A DNA stretch of 64,000 bases from Flavobacteriales bacterium (GTDB taxonomy: Bacteria > Bacteroidota > Bacteroidia > NS11-12g > UBA9320): the NCBI GenBank assembly GCA_020635455.1, contig JACJZT010000003.1, forward strand, positions 522,143 through 586,142, given 5' to 3'. The translations under genes were made by a program, and so were the position numbers. How positions within the stretch are numbered: position 1 is the first letter of the stretch; each line of letters starts with the position of its first letter. The notes beneath the pieces are model-generated. The model did no database searches, was not told the origin of the DNA, and saw only the letters and a program-made list of their open reading frames with translations. Shown piece by piece: positions 26,354 to 47,074 of this stretch.

Positions 26354-26355
26354 TA

Positions 26356-28581: not shown

Positions 28582-28582
28582 C

Positions 28583-31500: not shown

Positions 31501-31684
31501 TAAAGAGAAATACGCCGATAATACAGATACTCAAAATAGAGAATTGGCATTCAATAAAATTTTTGACGAAATAATGGGCAAACAGCGAAAAAACGAACTT
31601 GATCTATACCGTTTGATCTCTCAGGACGAAGGGTTTAAAACAGCCATGCAAGATACTATTAAGAGGATGTTGAGGGTGGCGTAG
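28583..31684 (+). CDS. hsdR: Type I restriction enzyme endonuclease subunit
   Basis: Walker A (HSAGSGKS) and a DEAH box (IIDEAHSSQSG). The N-terminal nuclease region is typical of HsdR. The start was chosen at the MPSNT Met (28583), immediately after the upstream stop, rather than at the ORF-track start (28403), which overlaps the preceding gene. Confidence 0.9.
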   Translation: MPSNTNEQALESTIEKRLTGASIEELKFEGIGVHPANDRVALYRAGNGYFIGSTENFNAKYAIDEYRFWDFLQTTQKDELAKLQKQSDWKLKILERLDRMIKKYGILRLFRKGLDVDDAHFTLLYPLPLASSSNIIKTNFDNNQFSSTRQLRYSLSNPGEEIDMVLFVNGLPFATMELKNHWTGQNAKVHGQHQYKFKRDITQPLLNFGRCIVHFAVDTDEAYMTTKLDGANTYFLPFNLGQREPLFGKGNPPNPFGHKTSYLWEEIFTRESVANIIQHFVRFDGKDTDPLAKKTLYFPRYHQLDVVRKLIADAGKNGVGQTYLIQHSAGSGKSNSITWAAYQLIETYPESDSIPGSKGISNPLFDSVIVVTDRRLLDKQLRENIKEFSEVKNIVAPAYSSKELKESLESGKKIIITTIQKFPFIVDGIADLSEKRFAVIIDEAHSSQSGTAAGKMNQAMGNSSEENEEEDEDPQDKILEAMRSRKMRGNASYLAFTATPKNNTLERFGIKQADGKFKPFHLYSMKQAIEEGFILDVLANYTTYKSYYEIEKSIQENPLFDSVKAQKKLRTYVEQNKQTIGTKAEIILDHFISKLVNTKKLKGKAKAIVAAQSIESAINYYFALKKLLEEKGNPFRIAIAFSGMKKIKGIEYTEDSINDFLANMDTAKPTDPGYISDKIARYFDMDEYRILVVANKYLTGYDQPKLTAMYVDKKLQGVIAVQALSRLNRSSDKLGKKTEDLFILDFYNTTEEIKKSFDPFYTATSLSRETDINVLHDLKSNLDNVGVYEWSEVEDFVAKYFKGVNAQELSPILDIAAERFNTILELEDEAKADYKIKAKHFVKIYGQMASIMPYEVVVWEKLFWFLKFLIPKLIIVDKEKDALDGLLNSVDLSTYGLERVKLNTSIGLDATETEVDPQNPNPRGVHSGSDKEELDLIIQSFNERWFQGWEATPEEQRAKFINLAQKIKEHSDFKEKYADNTDTQNRELAFNKIFDEIMGKQRKNELDLYRLISQDEGFKTAMQDTIKRMLRVA

Positions 31685-31707: not shown

Positions 31708-33504
31708 ATGCAGAATAGTATAAACCAAGAACAAGAGAATGAATTAATAAATAATTCTAAAAGATACCTAAAAGAGGATGTGGAGGCCTTTTTCTATGTT
31801 TTAGATGAAATATTAAAAACGATTGATCTTTCTGATACAGAAGGTAAAATAATTTACAGTTGTAAACGAAATAATCTGATTTTTATGGTCGGGCAAAGAT
31901 ATTGCTGGGTTTTAAGCGGTGATAAGCAAGGAAAATTTGCTGCTATATCATCCGAGAAATTAAGCAACAGTAATTTCAGTGCCCAATTTGATGGTTCTGT
32001 AAAGGCTTATTGGAATCGATTTACAAACACCACGGAAGTTTTAAAGAATATAGGCGAGATATGCCGGGCCGTTGAAATTGAAATAAACCGAACAAAAAAA
32101 TCTAGCTTTAAGAAATTTCATAATTTTAGTCTGGAAAAAGCAGCCTTGGATTTAAATTATCGTCAAAAGATCCTCCAGTTTGCCGGTACCAATTATGAAC
32201 CAAACAAAGAACTAAGCAAATCCATAGTTTCTCAAAACAGCATGAAAAATAAACTTAAACATCCCTTGAATCAAATATTATTTGGCCCTCCAGGAACCGG
32301 CAAAACATATAATACCATAAATACGGCTTTGGAAATCATCGGTGTGGATATTGAAGGTATGGGAAGAGAGGAAATAAAAGAATTGTATGATCAAAAGATA
32401 AAGGAAGGCCAAATTATATTTACCACCTTTCATCAAAGCATGAGTTACGAAGATTTTATTGAGGGTATAAAGCCAGAAACAATAGATGATAAGGTCATTT
32501 ATAATGTGAAGAATGGAATTTTTAAGAATTTATGTCAAATTGCAATTACACCAAATCAAGTAGATTTTAATAAGGGGTATGACTTATTAAAAATAAGATT
32601 GAGTGAAATGGAAATGATTACATTAAAAACCCCAACGGGAAAAGATTTTTCGATTTCATTAAATTCGAATGGAAATTTATCCTTACACACTGGTATACAT
32701 AAAGGGAATACTGGAACCCTGACTAGAGAAAATCTAATAAAACAATTAAACGGTGAATATAAATTTTCCGGCTGGGAAGGTTATTTTAAAGGTGTAATAC
32801 AATATTTGGAAGATGAATTTAATTATTCGACCACTACAAATTTACCAAACCAAAATTTTGTCTTAATCATTGATGAAATAAACAGAGGCAATGTTTCCCA
32901 AATATTTGGTGAACTTATAACTCTTATCGAAGAAGATAAACGATTAGGAAAAGCAGAAGCTATTGAAGTGACGCTTCCTTATTCAAAAGAGACTTTTGGT
33001 GTGCCACCTAATCTTTATATTCTTGGAACAATGAATACTGCTGATAGAAGCATTGAATCCTTGGACACCGCATTACGCAGAAGGTTTTCATTTAGGGAAA
33101 TGGCTCCAATGCCGGAATTAATATTTGAAAAAGGACAATCCAATGGGGATATTGATGGAATAGATTTGGTAGAACTCTTGACGGTTATGAATGAAAGAAT
33201 TGAAAAACTGCTGGATAAAGACCATAAAATCGGGCATTCGTATTTTTTAAAAGTTGCAAATATTGAAGATTTACGGCAGGCCTTCAAGGATAAAATCATC
33301 CCACTTCTTGAAGAATATTTTTTCGGTGATTTTGGCAAAATTGGTTTAATCTTGGGTGATAGTTTTATAATGAAAAATGAAACAGGCGACTTCCGTTTTG
33401 CAAATTTTACCGGCTATGATTCACTTGTGGAGCAAGATTTAAAAGAGAAAATGATTTATAAAGTAAAAGAAAGTTCTGAATGGGATTTTAGCAGCATACT
33501 GTAA
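31708..33504 (+). CDS. mcrB: McrB-family AAA+ GTPase subunit of a modification-dependent restriction system
   Basis: ILFGPPGTGKTY, the IDEINRGN motif and an FTTFHQSMSYEDFIEG region are McrB hallmarks. The N-terminal roughly 190 aa are an unrecognised DNA-reading domain. Confidence 0.85.
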   Translation: MQNSINQEQENELINNSKRYLKEDVEAFFYVLDEILKTIDLSDTEGKIIYSCKRNNLIFMVGQRYCWVLSGDKQGKFAAISSEKLSNSNFSAQFDGSVKAYWNRFTNTTEVLKNIGEICRAVEIEINRTKKSSFKKFHNFSLEKAALDLNYRQKILQFAGTNYEPNKELSKSIVSQNSMKNKLKHPLNQILFGPPGTGKTYNTINTALEIIGVDIEGMGREEIKELYDQKIKEGQIIFTTFHQSMSYEDFIEGIKPETIDDKVIYNVKNGIFKNLCQIAITPNQVDFNKGYDLLKIRLSEMEMITLKTPTGKDFSISLNSNGNLSLHTGIHKGNTGTLTRENLIKQLNGEYKFSGWEGYFKGVIQYLEDEFNYSTTTNLPNQNFVLIIDEINRGNVSQIFGELITLIEEDKRLGKAEAIEVTLPYSKETFGVPPNLYILGTMNTADRSIESLDTALRRRFSFREMAPMPELIFEKGQSNGDIDGIDLVELLTVMNERIEKLLDKDHKIGHSYFLKVANIEDLRQAFKDKIIPLLEEYFFGDFGKIGLILGDSFIMKNETGDFRFANFTGYDSLVEQDLKEKMIYKVKESSEWDFSSIL

Positions 33505-33516
33505 TAAAGACATCAG

Positions 33517-34770
33517 GTGGCAAGGCTTATTCAAATATTTGAACATGAAAATTTAACAATCTCTGAAAACCACAGAGGGGAAAAATTGGAAATTTCTGAG
33601 CTGGAGAAATTGTATGCTTTTAACGATCAAAACAATAATATCTATTTTACAGGAATACGAAACGGTGTAAAGTTTAATAGTTATGTCGGGGTTATCAAAA
33701 TAGGAGGCTTGACAATTGAGATATTACCCAAAGCAGATAAAAACCAATCACATTCAAAAACAGTTTATATGCATTGGCGGAATGCACTTTTAAATATGCT
33801 TTCGATCTGTAGAAAGATTAAGGTTGAATCCGTGTCCGAAGCAAATTTAAACAAACGATATTACTCGCTCCTAGACCTCTATTTTGAACTCTTTATCAAT
33901 GAGTTGAGCTATCTTTTAAGATCTGGCTTACTAAGAAAATACCACAAGCAGTCTTCAAATACCACTGCCTTAAAGGGCCGTATTGATTTTGGTAAAAACA
34001 TTCAAAAAAATCTGGTTCATAAGGAAAGGTTTTATACGTTCCACCAAGTTTATGACTATGAACACCTTATAAATCAAATACTTTTAAAGGCTCTAAATAT
34101 TCTTTCAAGAATAGTATCGAACGCAACACTAAAGGATCGTATAGCAAGACTTAAACGCGATTTCCCTGAAATCAAAGAGATACCAATTTATAAATCACAT
34201 TTCGATCAAATTAAAGAATCCCGTAAAACGGTTCCATATTGGGAGGCCATCAAAATCGCCAAAATGATTATTTTGAATTACGCTCCAGACATCAAGGGTG
34301 GTCAAGACAATATGTTGGCTTTATTGTTCGATATGAATAGCCTTTGGGAAGAGTATGTTTATCGTATGCTTCAAAGAAATAAGCCCGATAATATTCAAGT
34401 AAATTTCCAGAATTCACAAAAATTTTGGGAGGGAAAAACAATTCGACCGGATATCGTTCTTACCAAAACTGTGGACCAAGATGTTCAAGAAACCTACATC
34501 ATTGATACAAAATGGAAAATCATTGAATACCAAAACCCTTCGGATGCAGACTTAAAACAGATGTATGCTTATAATATCTATTGGAATTGTAGAAGAAGCA
34601 TGCTTTTGTATCCAAATGTGAAAGAGTATCCTGAGAGTTTTGGGAAATTCCATAAAGGGAAAGAGGGAGAAAATAAATGCAAACTTGGTTTTGTGAATGT
34701 TTTAGATGCATCGGGAGGCTTGGATAAGAATATTGGGAGGGTGATTTTGGAAAAGTTAATTGAGAATTAA
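33517..34770 (+). CDS. mcrC: McrC-family nuclease subunit
   Basis: 417 aa immediately after mcrB. McrC-like N-terminus and a C-terminal PD-(D/E)xK-like region (IIDTKWK). Confidence 0.7.
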   Translation: MARLIQIFEHENLTISENHRGEKLEISELEKLYAFNDQNNNIYFTGIRNGVKFNSYVGVIKIGGLTIEILPKADKNQSHSKTVYMHWRNALLNMLSICRKIKVESVSEANLNKRYYSLLDLYFELFINELSYLLRSGLLRKYHKQSSNTTALKGRIDFGKNIQKNLVHKERFYTFHQVYDYEHLINQILLKALNILSRIVSNATLKDRIARLKRDFPEIKEIPIYKSHFDQIKESRKTVPYWEAIKIAKMIILNYAPDIKGGQDNMLALLFDMNSLWEEYVYRMLQRNKPDNIQVNFQNSQKFWEGKTIRPDIVLTKTVDQDVQETYIIDTKWKIIEYQNPSDADLKQMYAYNIYWNCRRSMLLYPNVKEYPESFGKFHKGKEGENKCKLGFVNVLDASGGLDKNIGRVILEKLIEN

Positions 34771-34781
34771 AAGATAAATAC

Positions 34782-36491
34782 ATGACACATTTAACACATT
34801 TTGGGTTAGGTAATTTTAGGGTGTTTAAGGAAACAGCGCTATTTGAATTAAAACCTATAACTATACTTACCGGCACAAATAGCAGTGGCAAAAGTTCACT
34901 GACAAAAGGGTTGTTGGTAGTAAAGAACTTGTTTAAAAACAAGATAATTTTTAGAGAAAAGAGCAAGTGGAATGGATTTCCGGAACTAGACACAGATACT
35001 ATCTCAGAACTTGAAATTCCTTATAGTTTACATTTAGGAAATTTAAGCACATGTGCTAACAAATTCATAGGACGGTCTGAAATTGAGTTAATTTTACCCA
35101 TTAGCCTGGATGAAAAGAAAGAGGTATGGATGCTAACAATAGTTTATAAATCATCTGAGGAAAAAGAAGGATACGGCACATTGTGTGGATTTTTTTTGAA
35201 ACAAAGGGAAATTGATATTTTAAATTGCACTTTAGATGAACATAATTATTGGAGAATATCGGTAAATTTTAAGTTTTTAAAAATCTATTTTAAGGACGAA
35301 TTAGATAATTTAAAAACGGAATTACTATCAAATAACTCCTCACTTTTCAATTATAGCTTCTTGGAAGAACCTCAATTACTATATGAAATATTTGAAAATA
35401 CATTTGAAGATAAAGACATGTTGTTGGACTTTGTCGAATGGAATAAGCAGTTAAAAAACGAATATGAAAAGGAAGTTAGTTCAGGTAAATTTAAACCCAT
35501 TGAAGAGGAGGAAAGTGATTGGTTAAATTCAAAAATATTTATACAAGGTGGTGATCCATTTACATTAACTTTAGGTGATGTACTGATGGTGGACATTATA
35601 GCTGCATCTTATTATACGGATAGCTCTGCCGAATTATATAAGCATTTTGATATTGAAAAATCTCCTATGAAAAGGTTTGTTCCTAATGAAAACTTTATAA
35701 TTACTCATGATAGGAAAAATACGATTGTACCTCAGCGAATTGAGCTGATAATTCAAAACTTATTCCTAATAAAACTTGGTAGTTCATTAAATGAAACTTC
35801 AAAGATGGTAGGTGAGATTGAATATATGCCTTCAATTAGAAGTAATCCAAGTCGAATTTTTTTATACGATGATGATTCTGTTTTTAAACTATTACTAAAG
35901 AAGTTAACAACTGAATATATTCCTGATTTCATACTTAATTTTATTAAGGATCAAATAATTAAATTTGAAATTGCTGATGAATTTGAATTCGTAAAACTCC
36001 CCGATGGTATTGGTACTAGAGTAGTATTAAAAAAGGATGGTTATGGGTTTGATTTAATGGATGTCGGATATGGTTTTTCACAGATACTACCTATTATTCT
36101 GCAGCTGGCAATCATGATGAATTCGGAAAATAAACTATTAATTATAGAAGAGCCTGAAACCAATTTGCACCCGGCACTACAATCGAAATTAGCCGATATG
36201 TTTGTAGAGTGCTTTAAAAGATATAATATTCAATTTATCATTGAAACACATAGCGAATACCTTATCAGAAAACTTCAGTACTTAACAGGAAAAGGTGAAA
36301 TTGAACCTGAGATGACACAGATGTATTATTTTAATCATCCTGAAAAAATTCCTGAAGGAGAAAATCAAATTAAAAAAATCAATATTCAGAAAGACGGCAG
36401 CTTGACGGATGATTTTGGAACCGGATTTTTTGATGAAGCTACAAATTGGAAATTTGAATTAACCAAATTAAAAAATTCCCAGAGAAACTAA
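34782..36491 (+). CDS. ABC-type/AAA_15-AAA_21-like ATPase (DUF3696-like C-terminus)
   Basis: N-terminal P-loop (ILTGTNSSGKSS). C-terminal Walker B/D-loop (LLIIEEPETNLHP) and H-loop (IIETHSE). Confidence 0.7.
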   Translation: MTHLTHFGLGNFRVFKETALFELKPITILTGTNSSGKSSLTKGLLVVKNLFKNKIIFREKSKWNGFPELDTDTISELEIPYSLHLGNLSTCANKFIGRSEIELILPISLDEKKEVWMLTIVYKSSEEKEGYGTLCGFFLKQREIDILNCTLDEHNYWRISVNFKFLKIYFKDELDNLKTELLSNNSSLFNYSFLEEPQLLYEIFENTFEDKDMLLDFVEWNKQLKNEYEKEVSSGKFKPIEEEESDWLNSKIFIQGGDPFTLTLGDVLMVDIIAASYYTDSSAELYKHFDIEKSPMKRFVPNENFIITHDRKNTIVPQRIELIIQNLFLIKLGSSLNETSKMVGEIEYMPSIRSNPSRIFLYDDDSVFKLLLKKLTTEYIPDFILNFIKDQIIKFEIADEFEFVKLPDGIGTRVVLKKDGYGFDLMDVGYGFSQILPIILQLAIMMNSENKLLIIEEPETNLHPALQSKLADMFVECFKRYNIQFIIETHSEYLIRKLQYLTGKGEIEPEMTQMYYFNHPEKIPEGENQIKKINIQKDGSLTDDFGTGFFDEATNWKFELTKLKNSQRN

Positions 36492-37534
36492 TGATTTCAT
36501 TATATGTCAGTCATAAGTTTGTTGAAGAATTTCAGAATAGAACCGATTGGACAGATGAAATAATCTATGATTTTAGAAACCGTTTTCTTAAGAAAATAAG
36601 GGGAATTGAAGTTATAACAGATTCTGATTTTGATGGCATTGAAGATTTGGTTAATGAAAGCGAGTTTTACAGTGATTTATCAGAAATAAATGGAATTGTC
36701 TGTGATAAAACTTGGCTGGATAAATTGAAAGATGAAAGCTTTCTATATAGTGGTAACTTGTCAAAGGTATTTCTTCTTGGAAATGATTTTGACTGCAAAG
36801 CCATGACCTCTGAATATAATCTACTTTTTATCAATAATAGTAACCTTTTAGACTCATGGAATGATGTTAGAACAGACAGAGAAATAAGTGAGATGACGCC
36901 CAGTAATAGCGATGACAACCCATTTAGTTTCCATTCTTGGGAAAAATTAAAACTATTTAAGCATCCTTTTCATGATTTATTGATTTTTGACCTTTATTTA
37001 TTAGGAGATAAAAGCAATCAGAAAATAGACGATAACCTTATTCCCATGTTAAATTGCTTGTCGGAATTTAATCCAAAACAGAAATTTGAACTCACAATCC
37101 TCACAAAGGAATTCTTAAAACCTAAAAACATATATAACCCTGTTGAGAAAATAGAGGAAGTTTTCACAAAAATAGGAATTGAGAAATGTAAACTTATATA
37201 CTATGATGCGCAAAAATCGGAGAGCTTAAAAGAACATGACAGGCAACTATATACCAATTATATGGTATTTGATTGTGGTGCAGGTTGGAATATTTTCAAT
37301 CAAAAGGGTGGTGTTAATACTTCGACTAAAATAATTGGCAGGTCTATTTTTAGAAACGATTCAAAAAACTCATCAGAAAGTGCCCTTCAAAATTTTAAGA
37401 AATATTTTGAAGCGGTTAAGCATAGTAAAATACAAATTGCAATGGCTGGCCAGTTTGATGATAAAGGCAAATTAAAATTCGACTTAATGGATTATCATTA
37501 TCCGCTTGATTTTTACCCCGTTATTTTAAAATAA
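36491..37534 (+). CDS. hypothetical protein, partner of the ABC-type ATPase
   Basis: 347 aa. The start overlaps the ATPase stop (ATGA). No recognisable catalytic motif. Confidence 0.4.
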   Translation: MISLYVSHKFVEEFQNRTDWTDEIIYDFRNRFLKKIRGIEVITDSDFDGIEDLVNESEFYSDLSEINGIVCDKTWLDKLKDESFLYSGNLSKVFLLGNDFDCKAMTSEYNLLFINNSNLLDSWNDVRTDREISEMTPSNSDDNPFSFHSWEKLKLFKHPFHDLLIFDLYLLGDKSNQKIDDNLIPMLNCLSEFNPKQKFELTILTKEFLKPKNIYNPVEKIEEVFTKIGIEKCKLIYYDAQKSESLKEHDRQLYTNYMVFDCGAGWNIFNQKGGVNTSTKIIGRSIFRNDSKNSSESALQNFKKYFEAVKHSKIQIAMAGQFDDKGKLKFDLMDYHYPLDFYPVILK

Positions 37535-37540
37535 TATCCT

Positions 37541-38557
37541 CTAAGCAGAATACAAATTACTGGCTTCCCCCAGCCTGCTTTTGATAGCATTTGTAAGGCC
37601 TTCCGGCGAAATCACCTTCACACTTTCTGCATACGAAAGTATCAATCTTATAAATTCGTAATTAATGATTAATTCCAATTTCACCTCTAAGGTATTCGCA
37701 TCCATCCAATTTGATCGTTGCGAACCATGTATGGGTTTCGATTCGATGTAATTACCGGTTTTTCCGTAAAAATGTAGAATGATATTCTCGGTAGATTGTT
37801 CCATTGGCTTGGTTACGCCGATTATATCCTCAAAATATTCAGACCAATCGATTGAATTATTTTCACGGTAGTTATCCGTAATTTCATCAATAGATTGAAT
37901 TCTGTCCAAGGCGAGATTCCAATCGTATTTATCCATTTCATCATTGTATCCAAAAAGAAACCAGCGGTTATTGTATTGTTTAAGATAGTATGGATGAATG
38001 ACTATTTCAAAAGATTCAACATTTTCAAATGGTTTGTAGTCAATCCTAAGTACCTTTTTGTAATAGATGGCATTATATAATTTGCCGAGGTTCTCAATTC
38101 CTTTCAGGTAGTTGTTGTTGTCAAATTCGATAATAGTATGCTGGTTACCTTCGGTTCCTATTCCTTGCCTCAATTTAGGAATTAGTTCATTAATCCATTC
38201 AAACTGCGGCATACCTTTAAACTGGGACAGTATTTCGAGAGCTGATTTCAGTTGATTAATTTCCACTTCATTTAGTGGCATTTGATTGATAGAAAAATCG
38301 GTATCCACATAACGGTAATAAACTTTTTTACCATCTTTCAATCTTTCCAATTCTATTCCCCAGCCCTCACTGCTTTCCATAAATGAAATATCTGAAAAAA
38401 TTTGCCTTCTGCTTATTCCACCTAAGTCAGGGTCAATTTCGGTCAATGCTTTTTCACATTCTTTCATCAAGTCCTCAATAAAATAGCGTTTACCCGGATT
38501 GCGAAAGCAATTATCGAGAATCTTATATCGAATAAATTGATTTTTATTGGTAGCCAT
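37541..38557 (-). CDS. HTH-WYL domain transcriptional regulator, divergent from the RT operon
   Basis: WYL signature (NRWFLFGYND). The N-terminal wHTH (NQFIRYKILDNCF ... ISRRQIFSDISFM) is paralogous to the regulator at 11944. The ATG at 38557 is preferred because the HTH begins right after it. The ORF track extends the frame to a TTG at 38713. Confidence 0.65.
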   Translation of the reverse strand: MATNKNQFIRYKILDNCFRNPGKRYFIEDLMKECEKALTEIDPDLGGISRRQIFSDISFMESSEGWGIELERLKDGKKVYYRYVDTDFSINQMPLNEVEINQLKSALEILSQFKGMPQFEWINELIPKLRQGIGTEGNQHTIIEFDNNNYLKGIENLGKLYNAIYYKKVLRIDYKPFENVESFEIVIHPYYLKQYNNRWFLFGYNDEMDKYDWNLALDRIQSIDEITDNYRENNSIDWSEYFEDIIGVTKPMEQSTENIILHFYGKTGNYIESKPIHGSQRSNWMDANTLEVKLELIINYEFIRLILSYAESVKVISPEGLTNAIKSRLGEASNLYSA

Positions 38558-38582
38558 TTTTAAAGGATTATCAAAAATAATT

Positions 38583-38611
38583 CTTTCTGTGCAAATAAAT
38601 TGCACAGAAAG
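38583..38611. promoter_or_regulatory. Perfect 12-bp inverted repeat (ctttctgtgcaa-ataaa-ttgcacagaaag), a candidate operator in the WYL-regulator/RT divergent intergenic region
   Basis: Seen directly in the sequence. It lies just upstream of the preferred regulator start. Confidence 0.4.
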
Positions 38612-38857
38612 ATTCTTAATTTGTACCGGTTCTTTGAAAGCCTGTTGTAAGATATTGATTTTTGCCAACTGGAAATTATCGTAAGGTAGTATCAGATCGG
38701 TTGGTGTCTTCAAGGTAACTTGAGGATGAATGTTTAAAAGTAATTACTCTAGCAATTTACTTCTGGTAATGCTTAACTTAAAATTATTAACCTTTAATTT
38801 TTAATACAAGTTCCATAAACAAAGAGTATAGCAACGGGCTTCACAGAACTTAGAATT

Positions 38858-41008
38858 ATGAAGCTTGAAGAGGCGCATATTAAATCAATTAAGTCATCAT
38901 TTGAAAAAATGAAGGATAAAGAGGATTTGCTGCAACTTTTGAACTTTGTTAAACCATTAGTTTATGGTGAAAAGACAATTCCTTTTAAGTTGAAGCAACT
39001 GACTTGGTATGCCAATTCGACCTTGAAAGGCCGTAGATACAAAGAATTTAACATAAAAAAGAAGTCAGGTGAACATAGAACCATAAATTCCCCGGTAAGT
39101 GGTTTAAAAGCCATTCAAAGAATTTTGAATTTTATCCTTCAATGCGTTTATGAGCCTCATAAAGCAGCAATGGGTTTTGTTAATGGTAAATCCATTGTTG
39201 ATAATGCAAGATTACACACTGGCAACCATTATGTTTATAATATTGATCTGAAGGATTTCTTTCCTAGTATTGAGGCAGGCAGAATTTGGTCAAGATTTCA
39301 ACATCCACCTTTCAACCTAAATGATAGGACCAATAGAAAAGAACTTGCAAATATTATTACCTGGCTTTGCTGCTGTGAAATGGAGGTCGAGCGTTTAGAT
39401 GAAAAAAACCAGTGGCATATAGTCAAAAGAAATGTCTTACCTCAGGGAGCACCGACTTCGCCAACCATCAGCAATATTGTATGTCACCAATTGGATTTTT
39501 ATTTATCAGCAGTGGCAAAACGTTTTGGTTTAAAGTACAGTCGTTATGCCGATGACATAACCTATAGTTCTATGCACAATGTTTATCAAAAAGGCAGCGA
39601 ATTTTTGTCGGAAGTGCATAGAATTATATCAGCACAAAGCTTCCATATTAATGTAAATAAAACCCGTTTACAGAAAGCCGGATACCGACAGGAGGTAACC
39701 GGTTTATTAGTAAATGAAAACGTAAATTTACAAACAAGGTATATCAAACAATTGCGAATGTGGTTATATTATTGGGAAAGGTATGGTTACGAAAGAGCCT
39801 CAGGATTCTTTTTACAGCAATATGTTGCCGATAAAGGCCATGTAAAAAATGGCAAACCGGATTTGGCAAATGTAATTTCAGGCAAGCTTGATTACTTGAA
39901 AATGGTTAAGGGATCTGAGAATGATTTGTACTTGAAGTTAAAAAATAGGTTTAATCAACTTACAACTAAAACTATTGACCAGATAGATTTAAGTAAGGTT
40001 AAAAAGATAAGTAAACCTTCAGAAAGAGAATCAATTATTGAAGAGAACATCGATATTAATAATAATAATTCTTATCCAATACTCCATAATCCTCAAAAAA
40101 CTATTACGCTTTTGAAATCCTTTTCGGTCAATGAGAAAGATCTGAAATATTCAACACACAGTTGGGAAGAAGGTAAATACAACAGTTATGAAGAATATAT
40201 TGAAAAAATTAGAATTGAATGGAATGAAATCAAGGACGAATTAAAAAACCAAAGCCCAAGATTATTTGCCAAAATCTCAAATTTTTTATTCAATAATAAG
40301 CTAGGACAAAAAAACGAAGAAGGTTATTACATTTCTTGGGGTGAAAAAAGGTTGAAATTTGGATGGTCATCCGCAAACCTAAAGGACCATATGAGTGATC
40401 CTGGTAACTCCCCATTTTCTTGCCCGATTCCTGATCAAATAAGAGAATTGGACAAAAGACATGACCTCTTATATTTTAAGGATTATGCTGATGTTTTTAA
40501 AAATGAAATAGAGTTCAGAGAAGATTCTAATAATTTCAAAAAAATGATTTTGGAATTATGGGAAAAAGAATTGAGTTATGATTTCAACATAAAGGGTGTT
40601 GAGCAATTTGCTGGTTTCTCATTTTTTACAGATGTTCATCTTGTAAAAGAATCGTTAAGAACTGTATTTCGCGATATGTATAAAGTAAAGCCACAGTTCC
40701 CAACAATAATAATTGAAAAAATAAGCAGCTTTAATGAAAGAGGATACCATTTAATTAAAGTAACACAAAAAGACTCTTTTATCACCAGAGATGTTAACGA
40801 TCCTAAACTAACAAGCCCTTCCGGTAACTTGTTTTCCATCATAAGAAATCTTAAAAATTTATCTGATTACTCTATAGTTAGCAGGTTTAGGGATGGTAGA
40901 AATTATCGACTTAATTATCTAACTTCTACTAAGACTGATTTCATTGAAACTCTTACACAGGATGAAAATACCCTAGGATTTAGTCACGAATTCAAATTTT
41001 ATTTATGA
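38858..41008 (+). CDS. Reverse transcriptase (retron-like RT with a roughly 350-aa C-terminal extension)
   Basis: RT motifs: KKKSGEHRTI (motif 1), NIDLKDFFPSI (motif 2), LPQGAPTSPTISN (motif 4), YADD (motif 5), INVNKTRL (motif 6). The retron-associated NAxxH (DNARLH) and VTG (RQEVTGLLV) motifs are present. 716 aa. Confidence 0.85.
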   Translation: MKLEEAHIKSIKSSFEKMKDKEDLLQLLNFVKPLVYGEKTIPFKLKQLTWYANSTLKGRRYKEFNIKKKSGEHRTINSPVSGLKAIQRILNFILQCVYEPHKAAMGFVNGKSIVDNARLHTGNHYVYNIDLKDFFPSIEAGRIWSRFQHPPFNLNDRTNRKELANIITWLCCCEMEVERLDEKNQWHIVKRNVLPQGAPTSPTISNIVCHQLDFYLSAVAKRFGLKYSRYADDITYSSMHNVYQKGSEFLSEVHRIISAQSFHINVNKTRLQKAGYRQEVTGLLVNENVNLQTRYIKQLRMWLYYWERYGYERASGFFLQQYVADKGHVKNGKPDLANVISGKLDYLKMVKGSENDLYLKLKNRFNQLTTKTIDQIDLSKVKKISKPSERESIIEENIDINNNNSYPILHNPQKTITLLKSFSVNEKDLKYSTHSWEEGKYNSYEEYIEKIRIEWNEIKDELKNQSPRLFAKISNFLFNNKLGQKNEEGYYISWGEKRLKFGWSSANLKDHMSDPGNSPFSCPIPDQIRELDKRHDLLYFKDYADVFKNEIEFREDSNNFKKMILELWEKELSYDFNIKGVEQFAGFSFFTDVHLVKESLRTVFRDMYKVKPQFPTIIIEKISSFNERGYHLIKVTQKDSFITRDVNDPKLTSPSGNLFSIIRNLKNLSDYSIVSRFRDGRNYRLNYLTSTKTDFIETLTQDENTLGFSHEFKFYL

Positions 41009-41646
41009 TGAATTATGCAATATTGATCGAAGATCGAGTACATAGGCAAAAAAAACATTTAGAGGGTAAAATAATTGAATTAAATAATTTTTCCTTTCTA
41101 AAAAATGTATCTGGTGGACAGGATTTCGTGGACATACTCATGAAATTAAACAAAAAAGAATATACCGTCCTTAACGAATACTCAGTAATTATGCTTCATA
41201 GATCCGCATTCGAAACTGAAATTAGAAATGGATTAATGGATTATCTTAAAACAACAAATAAAAAAGTTGTATTCTTTTCAGGAGGAATTTCCGGATGTCA
41301 AATCAGTAAAATTGGGAACCTTGAGTTTTTACTAATAAATGTAAACCAGTTCTATTCTGACAATTTATTATTATTTCTTAAGAATAATGCGACAAACCTC
41401 TTGGAACTTGCTTTTGGGAGCAATTGGCAAACATCAATATTAGTGGATGCTTATGAAAAGTTAATTCTTTATTCTAAATCATTCACTAAACAACCCTGGT
41501 CTTCTATTGAAGTAAATTTGAAGTTAAATACCAAAATTAAAGAAGACTATTTTTTTGAGTTATCTCAAAAGGATTACATATATAAAACTGACCTAGAAGT
41601 AGTATTAAATAAAATGAATTTAGATTTAAATGAAAGAATAGAATGA
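41005..41646 (+). CDS. hypothetical protein (RT operon gene 2)
   Basis: 213 aa. Overlaps the RT stop (ATGA), suggesting translational coupling. Confidence 0.45.
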   Translation: MMNYAILIEDRVHRQKKHLEGKIIELNNFSFLKNVSGGQDFVDILMKLNKKEYTVLNEYSVIMLHRSAFETEIRNGLMDYLKTTNKKVVFFSGGISGCQISKIGNLEFLLINVNQFYSDNLLLFLKNNATNLLELAFGSNWQTSILVDAYEKLILYSKSFTKQPWSSIEVNLKLNTKIKEDYFFELSQKDYIYKTDLEVVLNKMNLDLNERIE

Positions 41647-43463
41647 ATCTGATTTTCCCATTAAAGGATTTTGACATAGGAAATATTGACAATACTTTTT
41701 TCTTCTCCGAAAATATTTCCGAAAATTACGAAAATGATATTGATCAACTATTTCAATCGTTCCTAAATTTGAATAAAAATAAAGAAATAGTTACTTTTAC
41801 CCTCCCGCTTAATCTGTCAAATAATTTCATGGAGTTCAGCGGGTTAATATTTGCACATCATGTTAGATTATCCAGAGAATTAAAATTTTGTAATGCGCCA
41901 ATCATATTTTATGGGGTTCTGGAATTAGAACAAATACTAAGATTAACTTCCTTAGCAAGAATATTGCTTACAGATAATGTTCTATATGTCAATATGGTTA
42001 AATATTCATTCCAGGATATTCAAAGGGCTATTAAAAAGTATCGATTAAAACCGTTTGATTTAAATAGATTTATTGATCAAATTCAATTAATTCCTCCTTC
42101 AAATTACAATTCTCACCATGGTATTGACAATGAATTTGCATTAATCCAATGGTCAAACTATATTGGTTGTTTTGACAGACTTCCTCAGCAGTTTAGAAAA
42201 GAATTTGTAAGTAATTTGTACTTTAAATATTTAAAAGCAAAAAATTCAATTTTTGCATTTGGTGAATATAATCCTATTAAGATTTCGTCCTCAGAAAATA
42301 CTCGGATATTATTAGTAGACGACGAGGCTTACAAGGGCTGGAAGTCTTTTTACGAGTCATTTTTTCATAATTCCAACGTAGAATTTGAAGACTCCGGCAT
42401 AGATTTTAAAAATAAAGATAAAGATGAGCTTATTAAAATGATTGAATCAAAGGTTAGAGAATTCAAACCGCATATCATTTTGCTAGATATCAGATTGCAT
42501 GATAGTGATTTCGAGCAAAATATTTTACCAGAATGCTTAACCGGTATAGAACTTCTAGAGAAAATAAAAACAATAAATAGTGGCATCCAAATTTTAATAA
42601 CAACAGCTTCCAATAAAGCATGGAATTATAACTTGGCCAAACAAAAAGGAGCGTACGATTTTATCATTAAAGATGGATTTGAAAATCCAGAATATTCATT
42701 AAAAAGACTAGTCTTTTCAATAGAAATAGCTGCAAAAAGAGCGATTTTTTTAAAAAACGTACGAAAACGGATAAATTTAATAATTAAGCTTATTAACGAA
42801 AATCCTCAATTCGATTATAATGAAAAAGATGGCTTGGTAAGTCAAATTGAAAATAATAATATATTAAGAAACAAGTTTCTTTCAGACCTCAATTCAGCTT
42901 TTGCATTATTGGATATCAGTTGTGAAGACCCTAACAAGTTAAAATATTATTCATATTGCTATCTACAGTTATTTATTTGTATTGAAGAATTCGTAAATCT
43001 GGAATCTGTTTTCGAAATTGTTGGTGACCAAAGTTTTGTAATCCACAGCCTAAAGAGAATTTGTGTTTCAAAGCGAAGTGATGATACTGTAGAACAAGCA
43101 ATTAAATTTAATAAAAATAATAATGGTAAGTACATAATTGAGAAATGTTCAAAAAAATTCATAAGGCTTGATACGAATTTTTTAGTTTCCTCCATCTTAA
43201 TATTTAAGTACGGAAATGAAAATTCAAGCGAGAATAATTGGACAAAAGTATACAAACAACGAAATGAGATAGTTCATGAAGGATCTATGCCAAATGAAAA
43301 CCAAATATTTGATTTACTCGATTTTATTCGATATTTTTTTAACGCAAAGAATGAAAATAGTGACAATTTAGATAAAGGCTTAATTCCCATTTCAGATGAA
43401 GAAAAATTGCAGTTATTAAAGCAAAAAATTAATACTAGCGAAAATGGTAAAAGCATATTTTAA
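41643..43463 (+). CDS. hypothetical protein with an embedded CheY-like receiver (REC) domain (RT operon gene 3)
   Basis: The central segment (RILLVDDE ... HIILLDIRL ... ILITTAS ... DFIIK) matches the REC D-D/D/T/K pattern. Flanking domains are unrecognised. 606 aa. Confidence 0.55.
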   Translation: MNLIFPLKDFDIGNIDNTFFFSENISENYENDIDQLFQSFLNLNKNKEIVTFTLPLNLSNNFMEFSGLIFAHHVRLSRELKFCNAPIIFYGVLELEQILRLTSLARILLTDNVLYVNMVKYSFQDIQRAIKKYRLKPFDLNRFIDQIQLIPPSNYNSHHGIDNEFALIQWSNYIGCFDRLPQQFRKEFVSNLYFKYLKAKNSIFAFGEYNPIKISSSENTRILLVDDEAYKGWKSFYESFFHNSNVEFEDSGIDFKNKDKDELIKMIESKVREFKPHIILLDIRLHDSDFEQNILPECLTGIELLEKIKTINSGIQILITTASNKAWNYNLAKQKGAYDFIIKDGFENPEYSLKRLVFSIEIAAKRAIFLKNVRKRINLIIKLINENPQFDYNEKDGLVSQIENNNILRNKFLSDLNSAFALLDISCEDPNKLKYYSYCYLQLFICIEEFVNLESVFEIVGDQSFVIHSLKRICVSKRSDDTVEQAIKFNKNNNGKYIIEKCSKKFIRLDTNFLVSSILIFKYGNENSSENNWTKVYKQRNEIVHEGSMPNENQIFDLLDFIRYFFNAKNENSDNLDKGLIPISDEEKLQLLKQKINTSENGKSIF

Positions 43464-44433
43464 AAATATACGGAAGTCAATATTAAATGAATTACTTAAT
43501 GCGAGTAAAAGTGTTAAGGTTGCTGTATACTGGTTCACCAATCATGATCTTTTTGATATGCTATACCAAAAACAATTGAGCGGTGTTCAATGTGAATTAA
43601 TTATACACAATGATTATATTAACAATAGAGAAACGGGTTTGCCCTTCCAAAAGCTCATAGATGCTGGAGGTAAATTTTTTTTTTCGGATGAAGTAAATCC
43701 AATGCACAATAAATTTTGCATAATCGATAACCAGGTTTTAATTAATGGCTCATATAACTGGACCTATTACGCCGAAAGCAAGAACAGAGAGAATATTCTC
43801 ATTATCAAGCAAGAACCAGTAGCTTTAGCATCTTTCAACGAAGAATTTGAAAAATTAGTAGGTCTTATTGAACCTGTTAATAATCTTAACCCAACTACAA
43901 AGTTTGAGGTAGATGAAAACAATTTACTTAGGGCACAGGACTACTTAGCTCATGATATCGTTTTTCAGGCAAAAGCAACCAATAAACCTGAAATTGTACA
44001 ATCAGCATTTGATATAGCCCCTAACAATTTAGAAATACAAAAAATAGCCTATAATTTGGATTTAGTAAAAAAATACAAATTAAAACACTCGGTAGGTGTT
44101 GGAATTGTAAATGACGAGGTAAAATTTATAGCTAAAAAGGGGGCTTCTATCCCAGCTACTTTTACCACTATAGTCAGGACAAGTTATAGTAATCAAACCA
44201 AAAGCGTAACCGATATTGTTTTCGGTGAACAAGAGAAAGCAACAATAAATAGGAAATTGACGGTAATGACTTTAAATGGTCTTCCAAAGAAACCGGCGGG
44301 AAAAGCTGAGGTTAAATTCACTTTTTCAATAGATCTTATGGGTAAAATTAGGATAGAAAAGATGTCTTTGGACAATGGTAAAAAAGAAATCATTAATCAA
44401 AATGCTAAATGGTTGATAGAAGAGAATTTTTAA
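43444..44433 (+). CDS. Phospholipase-D-family (HKD) nuclease-like domain fused to an Hsp70 substrate-binding-domain-like beta-sandwich (RT operon gene 4)
   Basis: HKD motif (HNKFCIIDNQVLINGSYNWT). The C-terminal roughly 100 aa align by eye with DnaK SBD-beta (IAKkgasIPatfttivrTsysNQtksvtdivfGEqe ... LnGlPkkPaGkaevkFTFsIDlmGkiriekmslDnGKkeI). Confidence 0.6.
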   Translation: MVKAYFKNIRKSILNELLNASKSVKVAVYWFTNHDLFDMLYQKQLSGVQCELIIHNDYINNRETGLPFQKLIDAGGKFFFSDEVNPMHNKFCIIDNQVLINGSYNWTYYAESKNRENILIIKQEPVALASFNEEFEKLVGLIEPVNNLNPTTKFEVDENNLLRAQDYLAHDIVFQAKATNKPEIVQSAFDIAPNNLEIQKIAYNLDLVKKYKLKHSVGVGIVNDEVKFIAKKGASIPATFTTIVRTSYSNQTKSVTDIVFGEQEKATINRKLTVMTLNGLPKKPAGKAEVKFTFSIDLMGKIRIEKMSLDNGKKEIINQNAKWLIEENF

Positions 44434-44618
44434 CCATAAACATTTTTCTAAAACCTCAAATAAATTCAATCTATGAAATTTTGAATATTAATAAATTAAA
44501 TAAATGGGAATCTTTCTACTTTTTGTGCGAAAAACTGTGTAAGTACGCCTTTTTCTGTCTGGGTTAAAATTGATTTTCAAATATGTTTGACTGACCTCCT
44601 CTCTAAGAACGAGACCAT

Positions 44619-46850
44619 CTAAGAAATATGCTTCGAGATCAATGTATTGACGAAAAGTATGTTCCCGATCGCATCGTAGCCTTCAAAAAACTCGAATGCA
44701 TTTCCGGATTTAATAACGCTTTCATGAAAACCAAGTATGGTGAGATCCGCATCAACGGAGTGCTTATTGATCAGCTCTTTTCGATTCATACCTTCTTCGA
44801 TCTGCATTACCTGTATGTTGTTTACCGAAATAGGCAATCTTCCACTTGAGATCAGGTCGATCAATTGTTGCTGTTCCTTTGTCAGGTTCTCTTTTGAAAA
44901 TGTTGCAAAGATCTTGATCACACCATTTCTCCAATCCGGATGTCCCATAATGATGTATGACATCAATATCATCAGGTTGGCATTGTCAAAATCTTCCTTG
45001 TGGATCCATACATGGATGTATTTTCGATAGCCAAAATTTTTGTCGGAACTGGATAAAATGCACAGATCGTATTTTCCGGTCTTTAGCACACTGTAGTTTT
45101 CAATAATTTCACCAAGCCATTCACGTTGACCTTTTTTAAACTCAAATAGCATCATGTTGTTCGGCTGCCCCGAAATTCCGGGTTGCTGAATGGCCTGAAC
45201 AATTGCAGCCGTATTGGATGGCGAGATCAGTGTTTCGAGAAACACATTCGATTTTGAAGATGATGAGATCTCGATCAGTTTCTGAAGCTTTTTATCTGCT
45301 TTGGCCTTTGACTCTTTTGAATAATAAGCCTTTTCGAAATGTATATAGGTTCCGAAACCGTATCGGTAAGAGATCCATTTCATCATTTCAAGTGCACTGT
45401 ATCGCTCAAAGCTGTCTTGAGACAGACAGATCACGGCAGGCCGCCAGTCTTCTTCCTTATTGTCTTTTTCCGATTTCTGCAAAAACACCTGCATGGTTCT
45501 GCTAAATTGATGTATCACTCCCTGGAAGATCGTTGCCATTCCTTTTTTGGTATCTGAACGTGTGGTGATGTAGAAATAAATGGAAACCATTACGATTACC
45601 GATACCAACGCGTATCCTGTGTTTATTTTAAACATCAGGTAGATACAAAGTATCGCCCCAAGCAGGGAGAGATACCATTTTGATTTAAAAGAAGGCCGAT
45701 AGGAAGGGTCGGCAGCAAAATGCTGTAAAAACGAGATCAAACACAAGGAACCATAAGTTACCATAAAGAACATCGAGATCACTTCAGCTACAGCATTCAC
45801 GTCGCCAAGCAAAACAAAGAACAAGGCAATGGCTCCGGTAACGATGGTGGCATTCCGGGGTTCATTATTTTTATCGGTTCCTTTGGCAAGCCAGTTGTTG
45901 ATGTTTTTTCTCACAAAAACATTATCGCCCCCTATTGCCTGTAAAGTTCGGGGAGCGACCATGATCGAACCCAATGCAGAGGAAATGGTTGCAGCAGCCA
46001 GACCAATAGGGACAATTGGTCCCCATAATGCGATCTTACTCATGATAAGCTGATCGTTTACAAGATCTTCCGGGCTGGCAGAAATACTGAGTTTAATGGC
46101 GATAAGGATATAGATCACCATACCCGTAATGGTTGCTGCAAGGGTACCAACCGGTATGGATTTTCCTGGATTGGCCAGATCACCCGACAAACCTACTCCT
46201 GCTGTCATGCCGGTAAATGCCGGAAAAATTATAGCAAAAACAAAGAAAAATCCCTGATCGGGACCTGCAGTATTGAAGAGGTCCGATGTGTTGAGGTGCG
46301 CACTGTATTCGGTACTACCGAGGAAGAAAAAAAGTAAAGAAACGATCAATATGGCCACCACAACATAAAGAGCCTTCATGCCCAGATCTGCCCCTCTTTT
46401 CAGCATAATGTAAATGAGAATCAACAAGGCCGGAATACTGAAAACCCTGCTATCGGTTAATTGAATTCCCATTTGCGATGATAGCCAAACCTTCACCCCT
46501 TCAAACGATTCGGCGAAGGCAAGAATATAGAAAGCCACACTTACGGCTTGAGAAAGATATAGGGCAATTCCAATGGCTGCTCCAATGTTTACCCCGAATG
46601 ACCTGGAAATAATGTAATACTCACCACCTCCTTCAACTTTTTGATTGGTTGCTATTTCGGCAAGAGCCATCGCTGTTGGTATGGTAACCAGATGGGCAAT
46701 TACAATAATGGCCAGGGTACCCATTAAGCCTACTGAACCAACCGCGTAGCCAAATCTCAGGAACATTATTGCACCCAAAATGGTTGAAATAGCAGTTAAG
46801 AAAACAGGAAGGGTCCCGAAATTAGCCTTGTTATGTTGAAAATCATTCAT
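44619..46850 (-). CDS. APC-superfamily permease (amino-acid/cation-chloride-cotransporter-like) with a large cytoplasmic C-terminal domain
   Basis: About 12 TM helices in an APC-type arrangement, plus a roughly 300-aa soluble C-terminus. 743 aa. Confidence 0.6.
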   Translation of the reverse strand: MNDFQHNKANFGTLPVFLTAISTILGAIMFLRFGYAVGSVGLMGTLAIIVIAHLVTIPTAMALAEIATNQKVEGGGEYYIISRSFGVNIGAAIGIALYLSQAVSVAFYILAFAESFEGVKVWLSSQMGIQLTDSRVFSIPALLILIYIMLKRGADLGMKALYVVVAILIVSLLFFFLGSTEYSAHLNTSDLFNTAGPDQGFFFVFAIIFPAFTGMTAGVGLSGDLANPGKSIPVGTLAATITGMVIYILIAIKLSISASPEDLVNDQLIMSKIALWGPIVPIGLAAATISSALGSIMVAPRTLQAIGGDNVFVRKNINNWLAKGTDKNNEPRNATIVTGAIALFFVLLGDVNAVAEVISMFFMVTYGSLCLISFLQHFAADPSYRPSFKSKWYLSLLGAILCIYLMFKINTGYALVSVIVMVSIYFYITTRSDTKKGMATIFQGVIHQFSRTMQVFLQKSEKDNKEEDWRPAVICLSQDSFERYSALEMMKWISYRYGFGTYIHFEKAYYSKESKAKADKKLQKLIEISSSSKSNVFLETLISPSNTAAIVQAIQQPGISGQPNNMMLFEFKKGQREWLGEIIENYSVLKTGKYDLCILSSSDKNFGYRKYIHVWIHKEDFDNANLMILMSYIIMGHPDWRNGVIKIFATFSKENLTKEQQQLIDLISSGRLPISVNNIQVMQIEEGMNRKELINKHSVDADLTILGFHESVIKSGNAFEFFEGYDAIGNILFVNTLISKHIS

Positions 46851-47074
46851 TATTGAAGTAAGAGGTTTATTTCTTTACTGTATTGAAAGTGGGGTCAAAA
46901 TTAGGATTAAATGTTGTTTAGCCGAATTAATATGTGAAATAATTAGGTCAATATCCTTAAACACCAGATTGGGATCCTTGAAAAATTAAGAATATGTGCC
47001 ACATCAGAAACCTTACACAAACCATGTGCTGTACGAATTATTTGTTAGAACTAAATCAGGTTTATAGTGATGGC

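Follow-up and report, generated by a model that had tools for sequence, protein, structure and literature searches.

Retrons and conflict systems closest to the locus

The classification of Mestre et al. 2020 (PMC7736814) divides retrons into 13 types. In types XI, XII and I-C, the reverse transcriptase (RT) is fused at its C-terminus to another module (trypsin-like protease, TIR and Toprim, respectively), and type IX retrons are linked to HEPN; the terms kinase, receiver and WYL do not appear in this classification, and it found no non-coding RNA (ncRNA) for type XI. A preprint by Toro (bioRxiv 10.64898/2026.05.14.725207, May 2026) describes TXI_C2like, a Bacteroidota lineage of protease-less, XI-like RTs with a C-terminal extension, in which a WYL gene is mostly found at position -1 and a candidate msr/msd with three stem-loops and a1/a2 repeats lies 38-388 bp upstream of the RT. 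Here we present a computational analysis of a locus in a 64,000-nt stretch of a Flavobacteriales metagenome-assembled genome (MAG; contig JACJZT010000003.1, hereafter the window), where a retron-type RT fused to a Pfam HisKin-conflict domain is preceded by an ncRNA and a divergent WYL gene, and followed by three genes that we name g2, g3 and g4 (Table 1). All functional claims below are predictions from sequence and models. In the retrons studied so far, the complex of RT and multicopy single-stranded DNA (msDNA) is thought to hold the effector directly, and how a change in msDNA could become an enzymatic signal is an open question. We consider it fairly probable that the window encodes a complete retron (promoter/operator, msr-msd RNA and RT) with its effectors coupled to it through a two-component-like signalling cassette, and that the retron probably acts on its predicted killing enzymes through a phosphorelay. 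In the locus, and in several hundred related protein clusters, a signalling module stands between retron and nucleases: a kinase-type domain in which one His is invariant, together with a receiver that keeps its phospho-acceptor pocket intact. Should the phosphorelay be real, the activation step becomes accessible to standard biochemistry, and the locus would use a signal-transduction route that has not been shown for any of the 13 retron types, a two-component system serving immunity and not transcription.

The lineage formed by the RT, the WYL gene and the ncRNA resembles TXI_C2like, a likeness drawn by matching descriptions: the window is a Flavobacteriales MAG sequence with WYL at position -1, a C-terminally extended RT with no protease, and an upstream a1/a2 ncRNA that fits the description with three stem-loops. 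The preprint, by contrast, treats WYL as an accessory module and does not mention kinase, receiver or PLD, whereas the extension in the window is a HisKin-conflict domain and the predicted effectors are a receiver-linked HEPN-like nuclease and a PLD nuclease. As in types XI, XII and I-C (PMC7736814), the RT is fused C-terminally to another module, but that module is a signalling domain and the effectors are separate downstream proteins. The RT does not fit type XI, as Pfam finds no peptidase in its C-terminus and reports HisKin-conflict instead. The window also has a well-supported ncRNA, unlike type XI in PMC7736814. With type IX, and with sister loci in which the RT is followed by a HEPN-like gene (e.g. 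L018; labels of this kind denote related loci), the window shares a retron RT followed by a protein with an Rx4-6H motif, and the L018-type loci also have a near-identical RT, ncRNA and WYL. The difference is that the HEPN-like domain of the window does not stand alone, being fused behind iREC-REC under a kinase. Finally, the same domain families, HisKin-conflict (PF22561) and iREC (PF22563), are found in a cassette composed of a sensor-HisKin protein with ankyrin repeats, a protein of ~213 aa and an iREC-REC protein. In the window, the sensor position is held by a full retron (ncRNA and RT).

We take these two Pfam families to derive from Burroughs & Aravind 2020; an earlier computational prediction probably covers part of the architecture. 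That work apart, searches of the literature on iREC, on TOTE and on retrons with histidine kinases turned up neither a description of the architecture nor an experimental study, and the architecture is absent from the 13-type retron classification and from the PADLOC effector models. An earlier note on this DNA proposed a candidate new RT-based defence system whose partners matched none of the effector sets that it recognised. We find this overstated because the partners are already curated or recognisable: HisKin-conflict and iREC are conflict families in Pfam, g2 has a receiver fold and g3 a HEPN-like end, the RT-HisKin family is large, and the lineage resembles TXI_C2like.

The RT-HisKin fusion, its ncRNA and its promoter region

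The RT carries the motifs N116-A-R-L-H120, Y230-A-D-D233 and V280-T-G282, which can be read directly in the protein, as the earlier note did. The NA and H of NAxxH, YADD and TG (T281-G282) are invariant in 34 homologues. The best 25 of 45 PADLOC matches are all retron RT models (154-330 bits, with 266-330 bits for the HMMs on which the retron identity leans), headed by RT-Protease_XI (329 bits, 1e-98), RT-TIR_XII (313), RT-Toprim_I-C (297) and then RT_XIII, all of which match by their RT part only; RT-Protease_XI aligns just to positions 23-325 of its 506 profile positions. The NCBIfam retron models score 197-277 bits, all below their type-specific cut-offs. These matches and the msr/msd RNA described below bear out the retron-type assignment of the earlier note. 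Group II introns and other mobile retroelements are rejected (the group II RT model scores 65.6 bits with a cut-off of 300, and there is no Rfam intron RNA), and so are the DRT, UG and abortive infection (Abi) RTs (Drt2 scores 38.8 bits with a cut-off of 390, and no DRT or Abi model is among the best 25 of 45 PADLOC matches) and the RTs of diversity-generating retroelements (DGRs), on HMM (hidden Markov model) scores and the absence of DGR RNA or repeat features. The RT domain spans residues ~44-385, with the retron HMMs aligning from residue 44 and RVT_1 from residue 66, which leaves an N-terminal extension of ~45-65 aa and not the ~110 aa given earlier. Many homologues have 810-870 aa, such as the 814-aa RT at L003:8001-10445, with an insertion of ~100 aa between motif 2 (NIDLKDFFPS) and ANIIASLCC that is absent from the 716-aa protein of the window. 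RT or g3 homologues also occur in assemblies labelled as other than Bacteroidota, namely P0173 (Sphingomonadales MAG), L024 (Bacillota MAG) and L083 (Azospirillum sp. CAG:239); these may reflect horizontal transfer or mis-binning, and they bear on the Bacteroidota-only claim that the preprint makes for its lineage.

The C-terminal extension of the RT, reported earlier, is not anonymous. Residues 409-715 match PF22561, described as "Histidine Kinase domain observed in conflict contexts", with an E-value of 1.2e-59 (1e-59 to 1e-61 across scans). At the start of the match, His434 in the sequence LKYSTHSW is invariant in the homologue alignments. RVT_1 (PF00078) and PF22561 are fused in all 120 best homologues of the RT protein, and by this count the RT-HisKin fusion is a large family. 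The HisKin-conflict domain itself is found in 336 representative clusters at 50% identity, always C-terminal; of ten sampled proteins, seven have ankyrin repeats N-terminal to it, one has an AAA-like region and two have nothing. One locus (L024:1964-4332) encodes RT and HisKin apart, in ORFs (open reading frames) of 398 and 388 aa, respectively, with only 5 nt between them, which speaks for a functional link and against an accidental fusion. As separate observations, split RT and HisKin ORFs apparently occur also in L031, L041, L034 and L015, and RT residues ~478-512 (40290-40390; GWG…KFGWSS…), the segment of the HisKin-conflict domain that separates its His helix from its C-terminal half, give a weak RyR-repeat match (E 0.15) that may be due to chance.

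In the ORF map, successive plus-strand genes share 4, 4 and 20 nt, so the five ORFs and the translational coupling described earlier are reproduced from the coordinates. The order WYL, ncRNA, RT-HisKin, g2, g3 is found again in more than 30 independent loci. This recurrence puts the arrangement far beyond chance, it supports a single conserved four-gene operon, in which the order RT-HisKin/g2/g3 is kept, and by this measure the locus is a real, well-conserved system. The other possibility is that of chance neighbours, an ordinary retron that happens to adjoin a PLD nuclease and a two-component regulator unrelated to it, or else a retroelement remnant. The locus does sit in a crowded defence island, and gene content past g3 varies between loci. 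Yet a single polypeptide holds RT and HisKin both here and in each of the 120 best homologues, a fusion that is not an assembly artefact since it is seen in independent assemblies; the RT-HisKin/g2/g3 order comes with overlapping stop and start codons in the more than 30 loci; and a remnant is opposed by the low group II score, by the lack of an Rfam intron RNA and by the presence of retron motifs and ncRNA. The conservation data refute chance association, which we regard as extremely improbable.

Upstream of the RT, where the earlier note had proposed looking for msr/msd, the 303-nt intergenic region holds a structured ncRNA with a1/a2 repeats. The first 20 nt past the promoter-proximal box pair with the 20 nt ending directly before the RT start codon, and this a1/a2 duplex encloses two msr hairpins and an msd arm. 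The RNA of the window (38627-38852) folds at -61.2 kcal/mol in RNAfold (z = -4.9), and the ncRNA of one relative at z = -8.5. After a1 there is a conserved single-stranded A-A-G-A-U-A-U-U-G-A, and the candidates for the branching G are G38651 and the invariant G of UUGA; the branching G and the exact msr/msd boundary are inferred placements. RNAalifold on the full-length ncRNA alignment recovers one stem only because MAFFT set a1 and a2 out of register, so in its place we used an alignment-free comparison of cognate and non-cognate duplexes, and an alignment of the msr only. In 33 loci, the a1/a2 duplexes have a mean of -17.2 kcal/mol when cognate, -7.2 when non-cognate and -5.7 when shuffled (p = 5e-18), with compensatory changes such as AAAACCCAAAC/GGUUUGGGUUU and AAUAACCGUAGU/AUACUACGGUUA. 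In the msr hairpins, 18 of the 22 pairs show double-sided changes, 91% of the msr cells are paired (32-52% in slid controls), and the covariation score is 0.64 (0.10-0.21 in slid controls). A covariance model of the msr has one match in the window, at 38627-38736(+) with 104 bits and E 3.5e-15, and searching both strands of 1.27 Mb it finds 42 matches, all 42 of which share the strand of an RT and precede its start by 150-320 nt. No curated Rfam retron RNA family covers this ncRNA, and when both strands of 36000-47000 are scanned with Rfam at E<=1, nothing but a chance snoRNA match comes up. The covarying ncRNA supplies an msr/msd for part of a type XI-related lineage, while none was found for type XI in 2020, and it is useful for surveys of Bacteroidota for retron-based genome editing. 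A comparison of L018:1300-3300 with L041:7430-9450 shows the central msd sharply divergent (columns ~360-540) between identical msr, a1 and a2, which suggests that the reverse-transcribed msd segment is hypervariable or exchangeable.

The extent of this region depends on the WYL start. The longest WYL ORF is 37541-38713(-) with a TTG start, which would leave an intergenic gap of 144 nt. In an alignment with ~27 homologous loci, the start Met common to all relatives (CAT on the plus strand) favours the ATG at 38554, so most likely the WYL protein starts there with 337 aa as its homologues do, and the intergenic region is 38555-38857. The WYL gene is divergent and adjoins the RT in most relatives. 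The earlier note called it a divergent HTH-WYL regulator; the WYL and WCX domains and the divergent position stand, but no HMM detects an N-terminal helix-turn-helix (HTH), which can only be presumed.

The perfect palindrome noted earlier is exact, with the sequence TCTTTCTGTGCAA-N5-TTGCACAGAAAGA, 13-nt arms that are 100% complementary and a 5-nt loop. It ends ~15 nt before the ncRNA 5' end and is closely followed by the box TTAATTTG at 38616-38623, a putative promoter element. Across ~30 loci, its TGCA-N7-9-TGCA core is conserved in sequence and in its spacing of ~40 nt to the downstream a1, unlike the RNA stems beside it, which covary freely. Because the half-sites are conserved instead of covarying, a pattern that fits the binding site of a dimeric protein, the palindrome is a probable WYL operator. 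For the same reason we rejected a terminator, although the palindrome had been flagged as terminator-like on both strands. A sigma-70 promoter scan is uninformative, with 42 sites where 31.7 are expected and a consensus unsuited to a Bacteroidota host. The BrxR/CapW style of control put forward in the earlier note would fit these features, since such regulators likewise combine WYL and WCX with a divergent position and a promoter palindrome; unlike them, the regulator here has no HTH detected by HMM, and its DNA binding is a prediction. A second TGCA-N7-9-TGCA copy lies nearer the WYL start in L003, L040, L046 and L053, ~380-395 nt upstream of the RT, and may be a second operator of the divergent promoter; the shorter intergenic region of the window has one copy only.

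The receiver proteins, their outputs and possible signalling

The 213-aa product of g2, reported earlier as an unknown protein, is a receiver-fold protein (residues 1-115) with a helical C-terminal domain. It keeps E9 and D10, and an invariant H65-R-S at the end of strand 3 replaces the phospho-acceptor Asp. The earlier note recognised g3 as a REC-containing protein, rightly as regards its canonical receiver, but missed the domains on both sides. The N-terminus is Pfam iREC ("Inactive Receiver", PF22563, E 2.2e-18). In the canonical REC domain, D226, D227, D282, T321 and K343 are invariant or nearly so in 35 diverse homologues, and in a search of the PDB with the family profile they align with the LLD, T and K positions of solved receivers; phmmer with the REC domain alone finds nothing in the PDB. 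In the C-terminus, E448, R540 and H545 (R540-N-E-I-V-H545) are invariant in 17-35 sequences. They constitute an Rx4-6H motif, kept also in a subgroup in which the C-terminus is otherwise different. The modelled C-terminal domain is a helical bundle with a beta insertion (pLDDT 89.8), the motif lying in helix 165-181 of the model, and it looks like a HEPN-like domain, a putative RNase. PADLOC has no model for g2 or g3. For g4, the PLD/Hsp70 fusion identified earlier is supported by Pfam PLDc_2 (4.7e-25) and NCBIfam NucT (5e-11), and in the C-terminal part by Pfam HSP70 (5.3e-8, profile positions 393-497, the substrate-binding domain or SBD) and NCBIfam DnaK (2.6e-10). The PLD domain is Nuc/NucT-like with a single HKD motif, which is intact (H88-x-K90-x4-D95-x6-G102-S103-x-N105). 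In L032:12919-15351, g3 is followed by an 810-aa Hsp70-like protein (nucleotide-binding domain, 1.9e-27) and then by an uncharacterised 392-aa ORF; this gene and the Hsp70 SBD of g4 point to a recurring link with Hsp70 modules.

The cassette is also found without a retron. In L085:5345-9564 and in L086, an ankyrin-HisKin protein is followed by g2 and iREC-REC homologues, beside a DarT/NADAR (DarTG) pair; the g2 homologue has 42% identity, the iREC-REC homologue is clear, and the msr covariance model finds no match in the ankyrin-HisKin locus. That such a locus keeps g2 and iREC-REC indicates a conserved core of sensor-HisKin, g2 and iREC-REC-output, with the retron as one of several sensors, and ankyrin repeats as an alternative sensor suggest a general plug-in signalling chassis for bacterial immunity. 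Conversely, some related loci have the RT only. Of the 39 such loci that have an ORF downstream, 35 encode immediately behind the RT a member of one family of 240-335 aa, with an invariant RNxxHR motif and weak HEPN_Apea matches; this family may correspond to "AC006", an uncharacterised cluster in the Toro preprint. Over the WYL 5' end, promoter, msr and RT, L018 (RT and HEPN-like gene) and L041 (RT, HisKin and g3; no g2 match by tblastn) are ~93-95% identical, and the similarity stops abruptly at the end of the RT domain. In a rough neighbour-joining tree of the loci, the RT-HisKin and RT-HEPN-like architectures are interspersed. This swap and the interspersed tree make it look as if the cassette had been inserted where a retron sensor meets a HEPN-type effector.

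The outputs vary as well. After g3 we find PLD-SBD in the window, L002 and L038, and DUF3127 in seven loci. In ~19 of 36 related loci there is a pair consisting of a PIF1-like helicase with TBP-TOTE and a DUF7017/S1CSD-TOTE-1/2 protein, encoded on the strand of g3, behind g3 itself or behind a small fourth gene, and separated by short gaps (e.g. L002:13967-17660, L003:13349-17021). The pair is also found behind the sister retrons with RT and HEPN-like gene L018-L020, L029 and L079; it could act as a co-effector or belong to a second system in tight linkage. A search for papers on TOTE yielded none.

From these elements we propose, as a possibility somewhat short of probable, that the RT-msDNA complex is the sensory input of a histidine kinase, that the state of the msDNA is passed to nucleases by a His-Asp phosphorelay, and that sensor and output modules are interchangeable around the conserved core, the outputs being HEPN-like, PLD-Hsp70 SBD and possibly the TOTE helicase pair. 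In the mechanism that we think likely, WYL bound to the palindrome would keep the operon low until infection or DNA damage lifts the repression. The RT would make msDNA from the msd, and the RT-msDNA complex would take the place of a kinase sensor domain. Once the msDNA is bound, modified or degraded by a factor from the phage, the kinase output at His434 would change, and Asp282 of g3 would receive the phosphoryl group from His434; g2 and iREC would modulate this step or serve as docking partners. In its altered state, REC would then switch the HEPN-like RNase, probably through dimerisation, and the PLD nuclease too, be it directly or indirectly; with RNA and DNA cut, the infected cell would halt growth or die (abortive infection). 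As to polarity, the sequence is compatible with phosphorylation as either the ON or the OFF state.

Several points weigh against this mechanism. No histidine kinase match is obtained for the HisKin domain in a profile search of the PDB or by hhalign with EnvZ, Pfam gives no HATPase_c match, and a relaxed Pfam scan shows no link to classical kinases; nor do we see a conserved N-box Asn or glycine-rich G1/G2 boxes in the HisKin alignment. The kinase identity comes from the Pfam family name and the conserved His. The branching G, msDNA production, the trigger and phosphotransfer are all inferred, and the roles of g2, iREC and the Hsp70 SBD are conjectural. From 44434 onwards, the window also lacks the PIF1/TOTE pair that most relatives carry, so it may be a reduced version, with an uncertain effector set.

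The first of these points would suit a different mechanism, in which HisKin-conflict is a degenerate GHKL-like or structural module, and the receiver folds sense the RT product as nucleotide or nucleic-acid sensors, activating the nucleases with no His-Asp relay. The acceptor Asp is absent from two of the three modules with a receiver fold, and kinase-independent, nucleotide-responsive switches are what the Aravind lab has proposed for receiver domains in conflict systems, as quoted in PMC8195603. But g3 REC keeps D226, D227, D282, T321 and K343 across the 35 diverse homologues, a pocket that is hard to explain without phosphochemistry, and the single invariant His in the N-terminal helix of HisKin and the histidine kinase assignment by the Pfam curators argue in the same direction. 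We think a mechanism free of phosphotransfer quite improbable.

The phosphorelay might also work with inverted logic. In characterised retrons such as Ec48, Sen2 and Eco1, RT-msDNA neutralises the effector until phage perturbs the complex. By analogy, a kinase bound to RT-msDNA would be constitutively active, phospho-REC or a kinase-REC complex would keep the nucleases OFF, and damage to the msDNA would leave REC dephosphorylated and let the nucleases fire. In this scheme g2, with its receiver fold, E9/D10 and no acceptor Asp, could serve as a phosphate sink or phosphatase partner. All evidence for the proposed relay fits the inverted one equally, and the sequence does not discriminate polarity. 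Since the HEPN-like protein of the sister loci works with the RT and no kinase, either polarity could have been inserted. We consider the inverted relay unlikely, if less so than a mechanism without phosphotransfer.

Locus coordinates and the defence island

The features of the locus and of its surroundings are collected in Table 1. The operon is at the end of a ~27-kb defence island (window 10814-37534), with housekeeping permeases on the opposite strand downstream. Relatives of the operon adjoin Type I/III restriction-modification systems, pAgo, McrBC and DarTG.

Table 1. Coordinates of the retron locus, of the parts of its ncRNA and of the adjoining defence island in the window.
Feature	Coordinates	Strand	Evidence or remarks
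WYL-WCX regulator	37541-38554	-	337 aa from ATG at 38554; Pfam WYL 5.6e-10, WCX 2.6e-5; PADLOC WYL 2.7e-23
Perfect 13-nt inverted repeat, probable WYL operator	38582-38612		arms 38582-38594 and 38600-38612
Retron msr-msd ncRNA	38628-38850	+	fold, a1/a2 co-evolution, covariance model
a1	38628-38648	+	pairs with a2
Single-stranded conserved AAGAUAUUGAUUUU	38649-38663	+	follows a1; candidate branching G near 38651
msr stem-loop 1	38664-38705	+	fold/covariation
msr stem-loop 2	38706-38727	+	fold/covariation
Conserved UGAAUGU box	38727-38733	+	alignment of relatives
msd template region	~38734-38830	+	includes conserved CAUAAACAAAGAGUAUA at 38814-38830
a2	~38830-38850	+	pairs with a1
RT-HisKin, 716 aa	38858-41008	+	Pfam RVT_1 5.5e-25, HisKin-conflict 1.2e-59
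g2, 213 aa	41005-41646	+	receiver fold (1-115) and helical C-terminal domain
g3, 606 aa	41643-43463	+	iREC (4-~200), REC (215-365), HEPN-like C-terminus (366-606)
g4, 329 aa	43444-44433	+	PLD domain (13-138) and Hsp70 SBD beta (216-320)
Second WYL protein	11944-12870		island
Protein with weak PADLOC Cas4 match	12881-14236		island; E 4.3e-6
Two Type I methyltransferases	15058-17520, 18704-21070		island
HsdS	22150-23457		island
PDC-S21/DUF4917 (SIR2-like)	23471-24541		island
Two GmrSD-like genes	24554-28581		island
HsdR	28403-31684		island
McrBC	31708-34770		island
NsnB/AriA-like ATPase	34782-36491		island
Unannotated 347-aa partner of NsnB/AriA-like ATPase	36491-37534		island

Among the relatives, we also observe at L015:13464-15822, downstream of a HisKin retron, a 352-aa ORF that is DnaB-like by eye and a second retron-type RT (369 aa). 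Together they may represent "TXI_noncan_h", the architecture that the Toro preprint associates with DnaB_C, placed beside the first retron.

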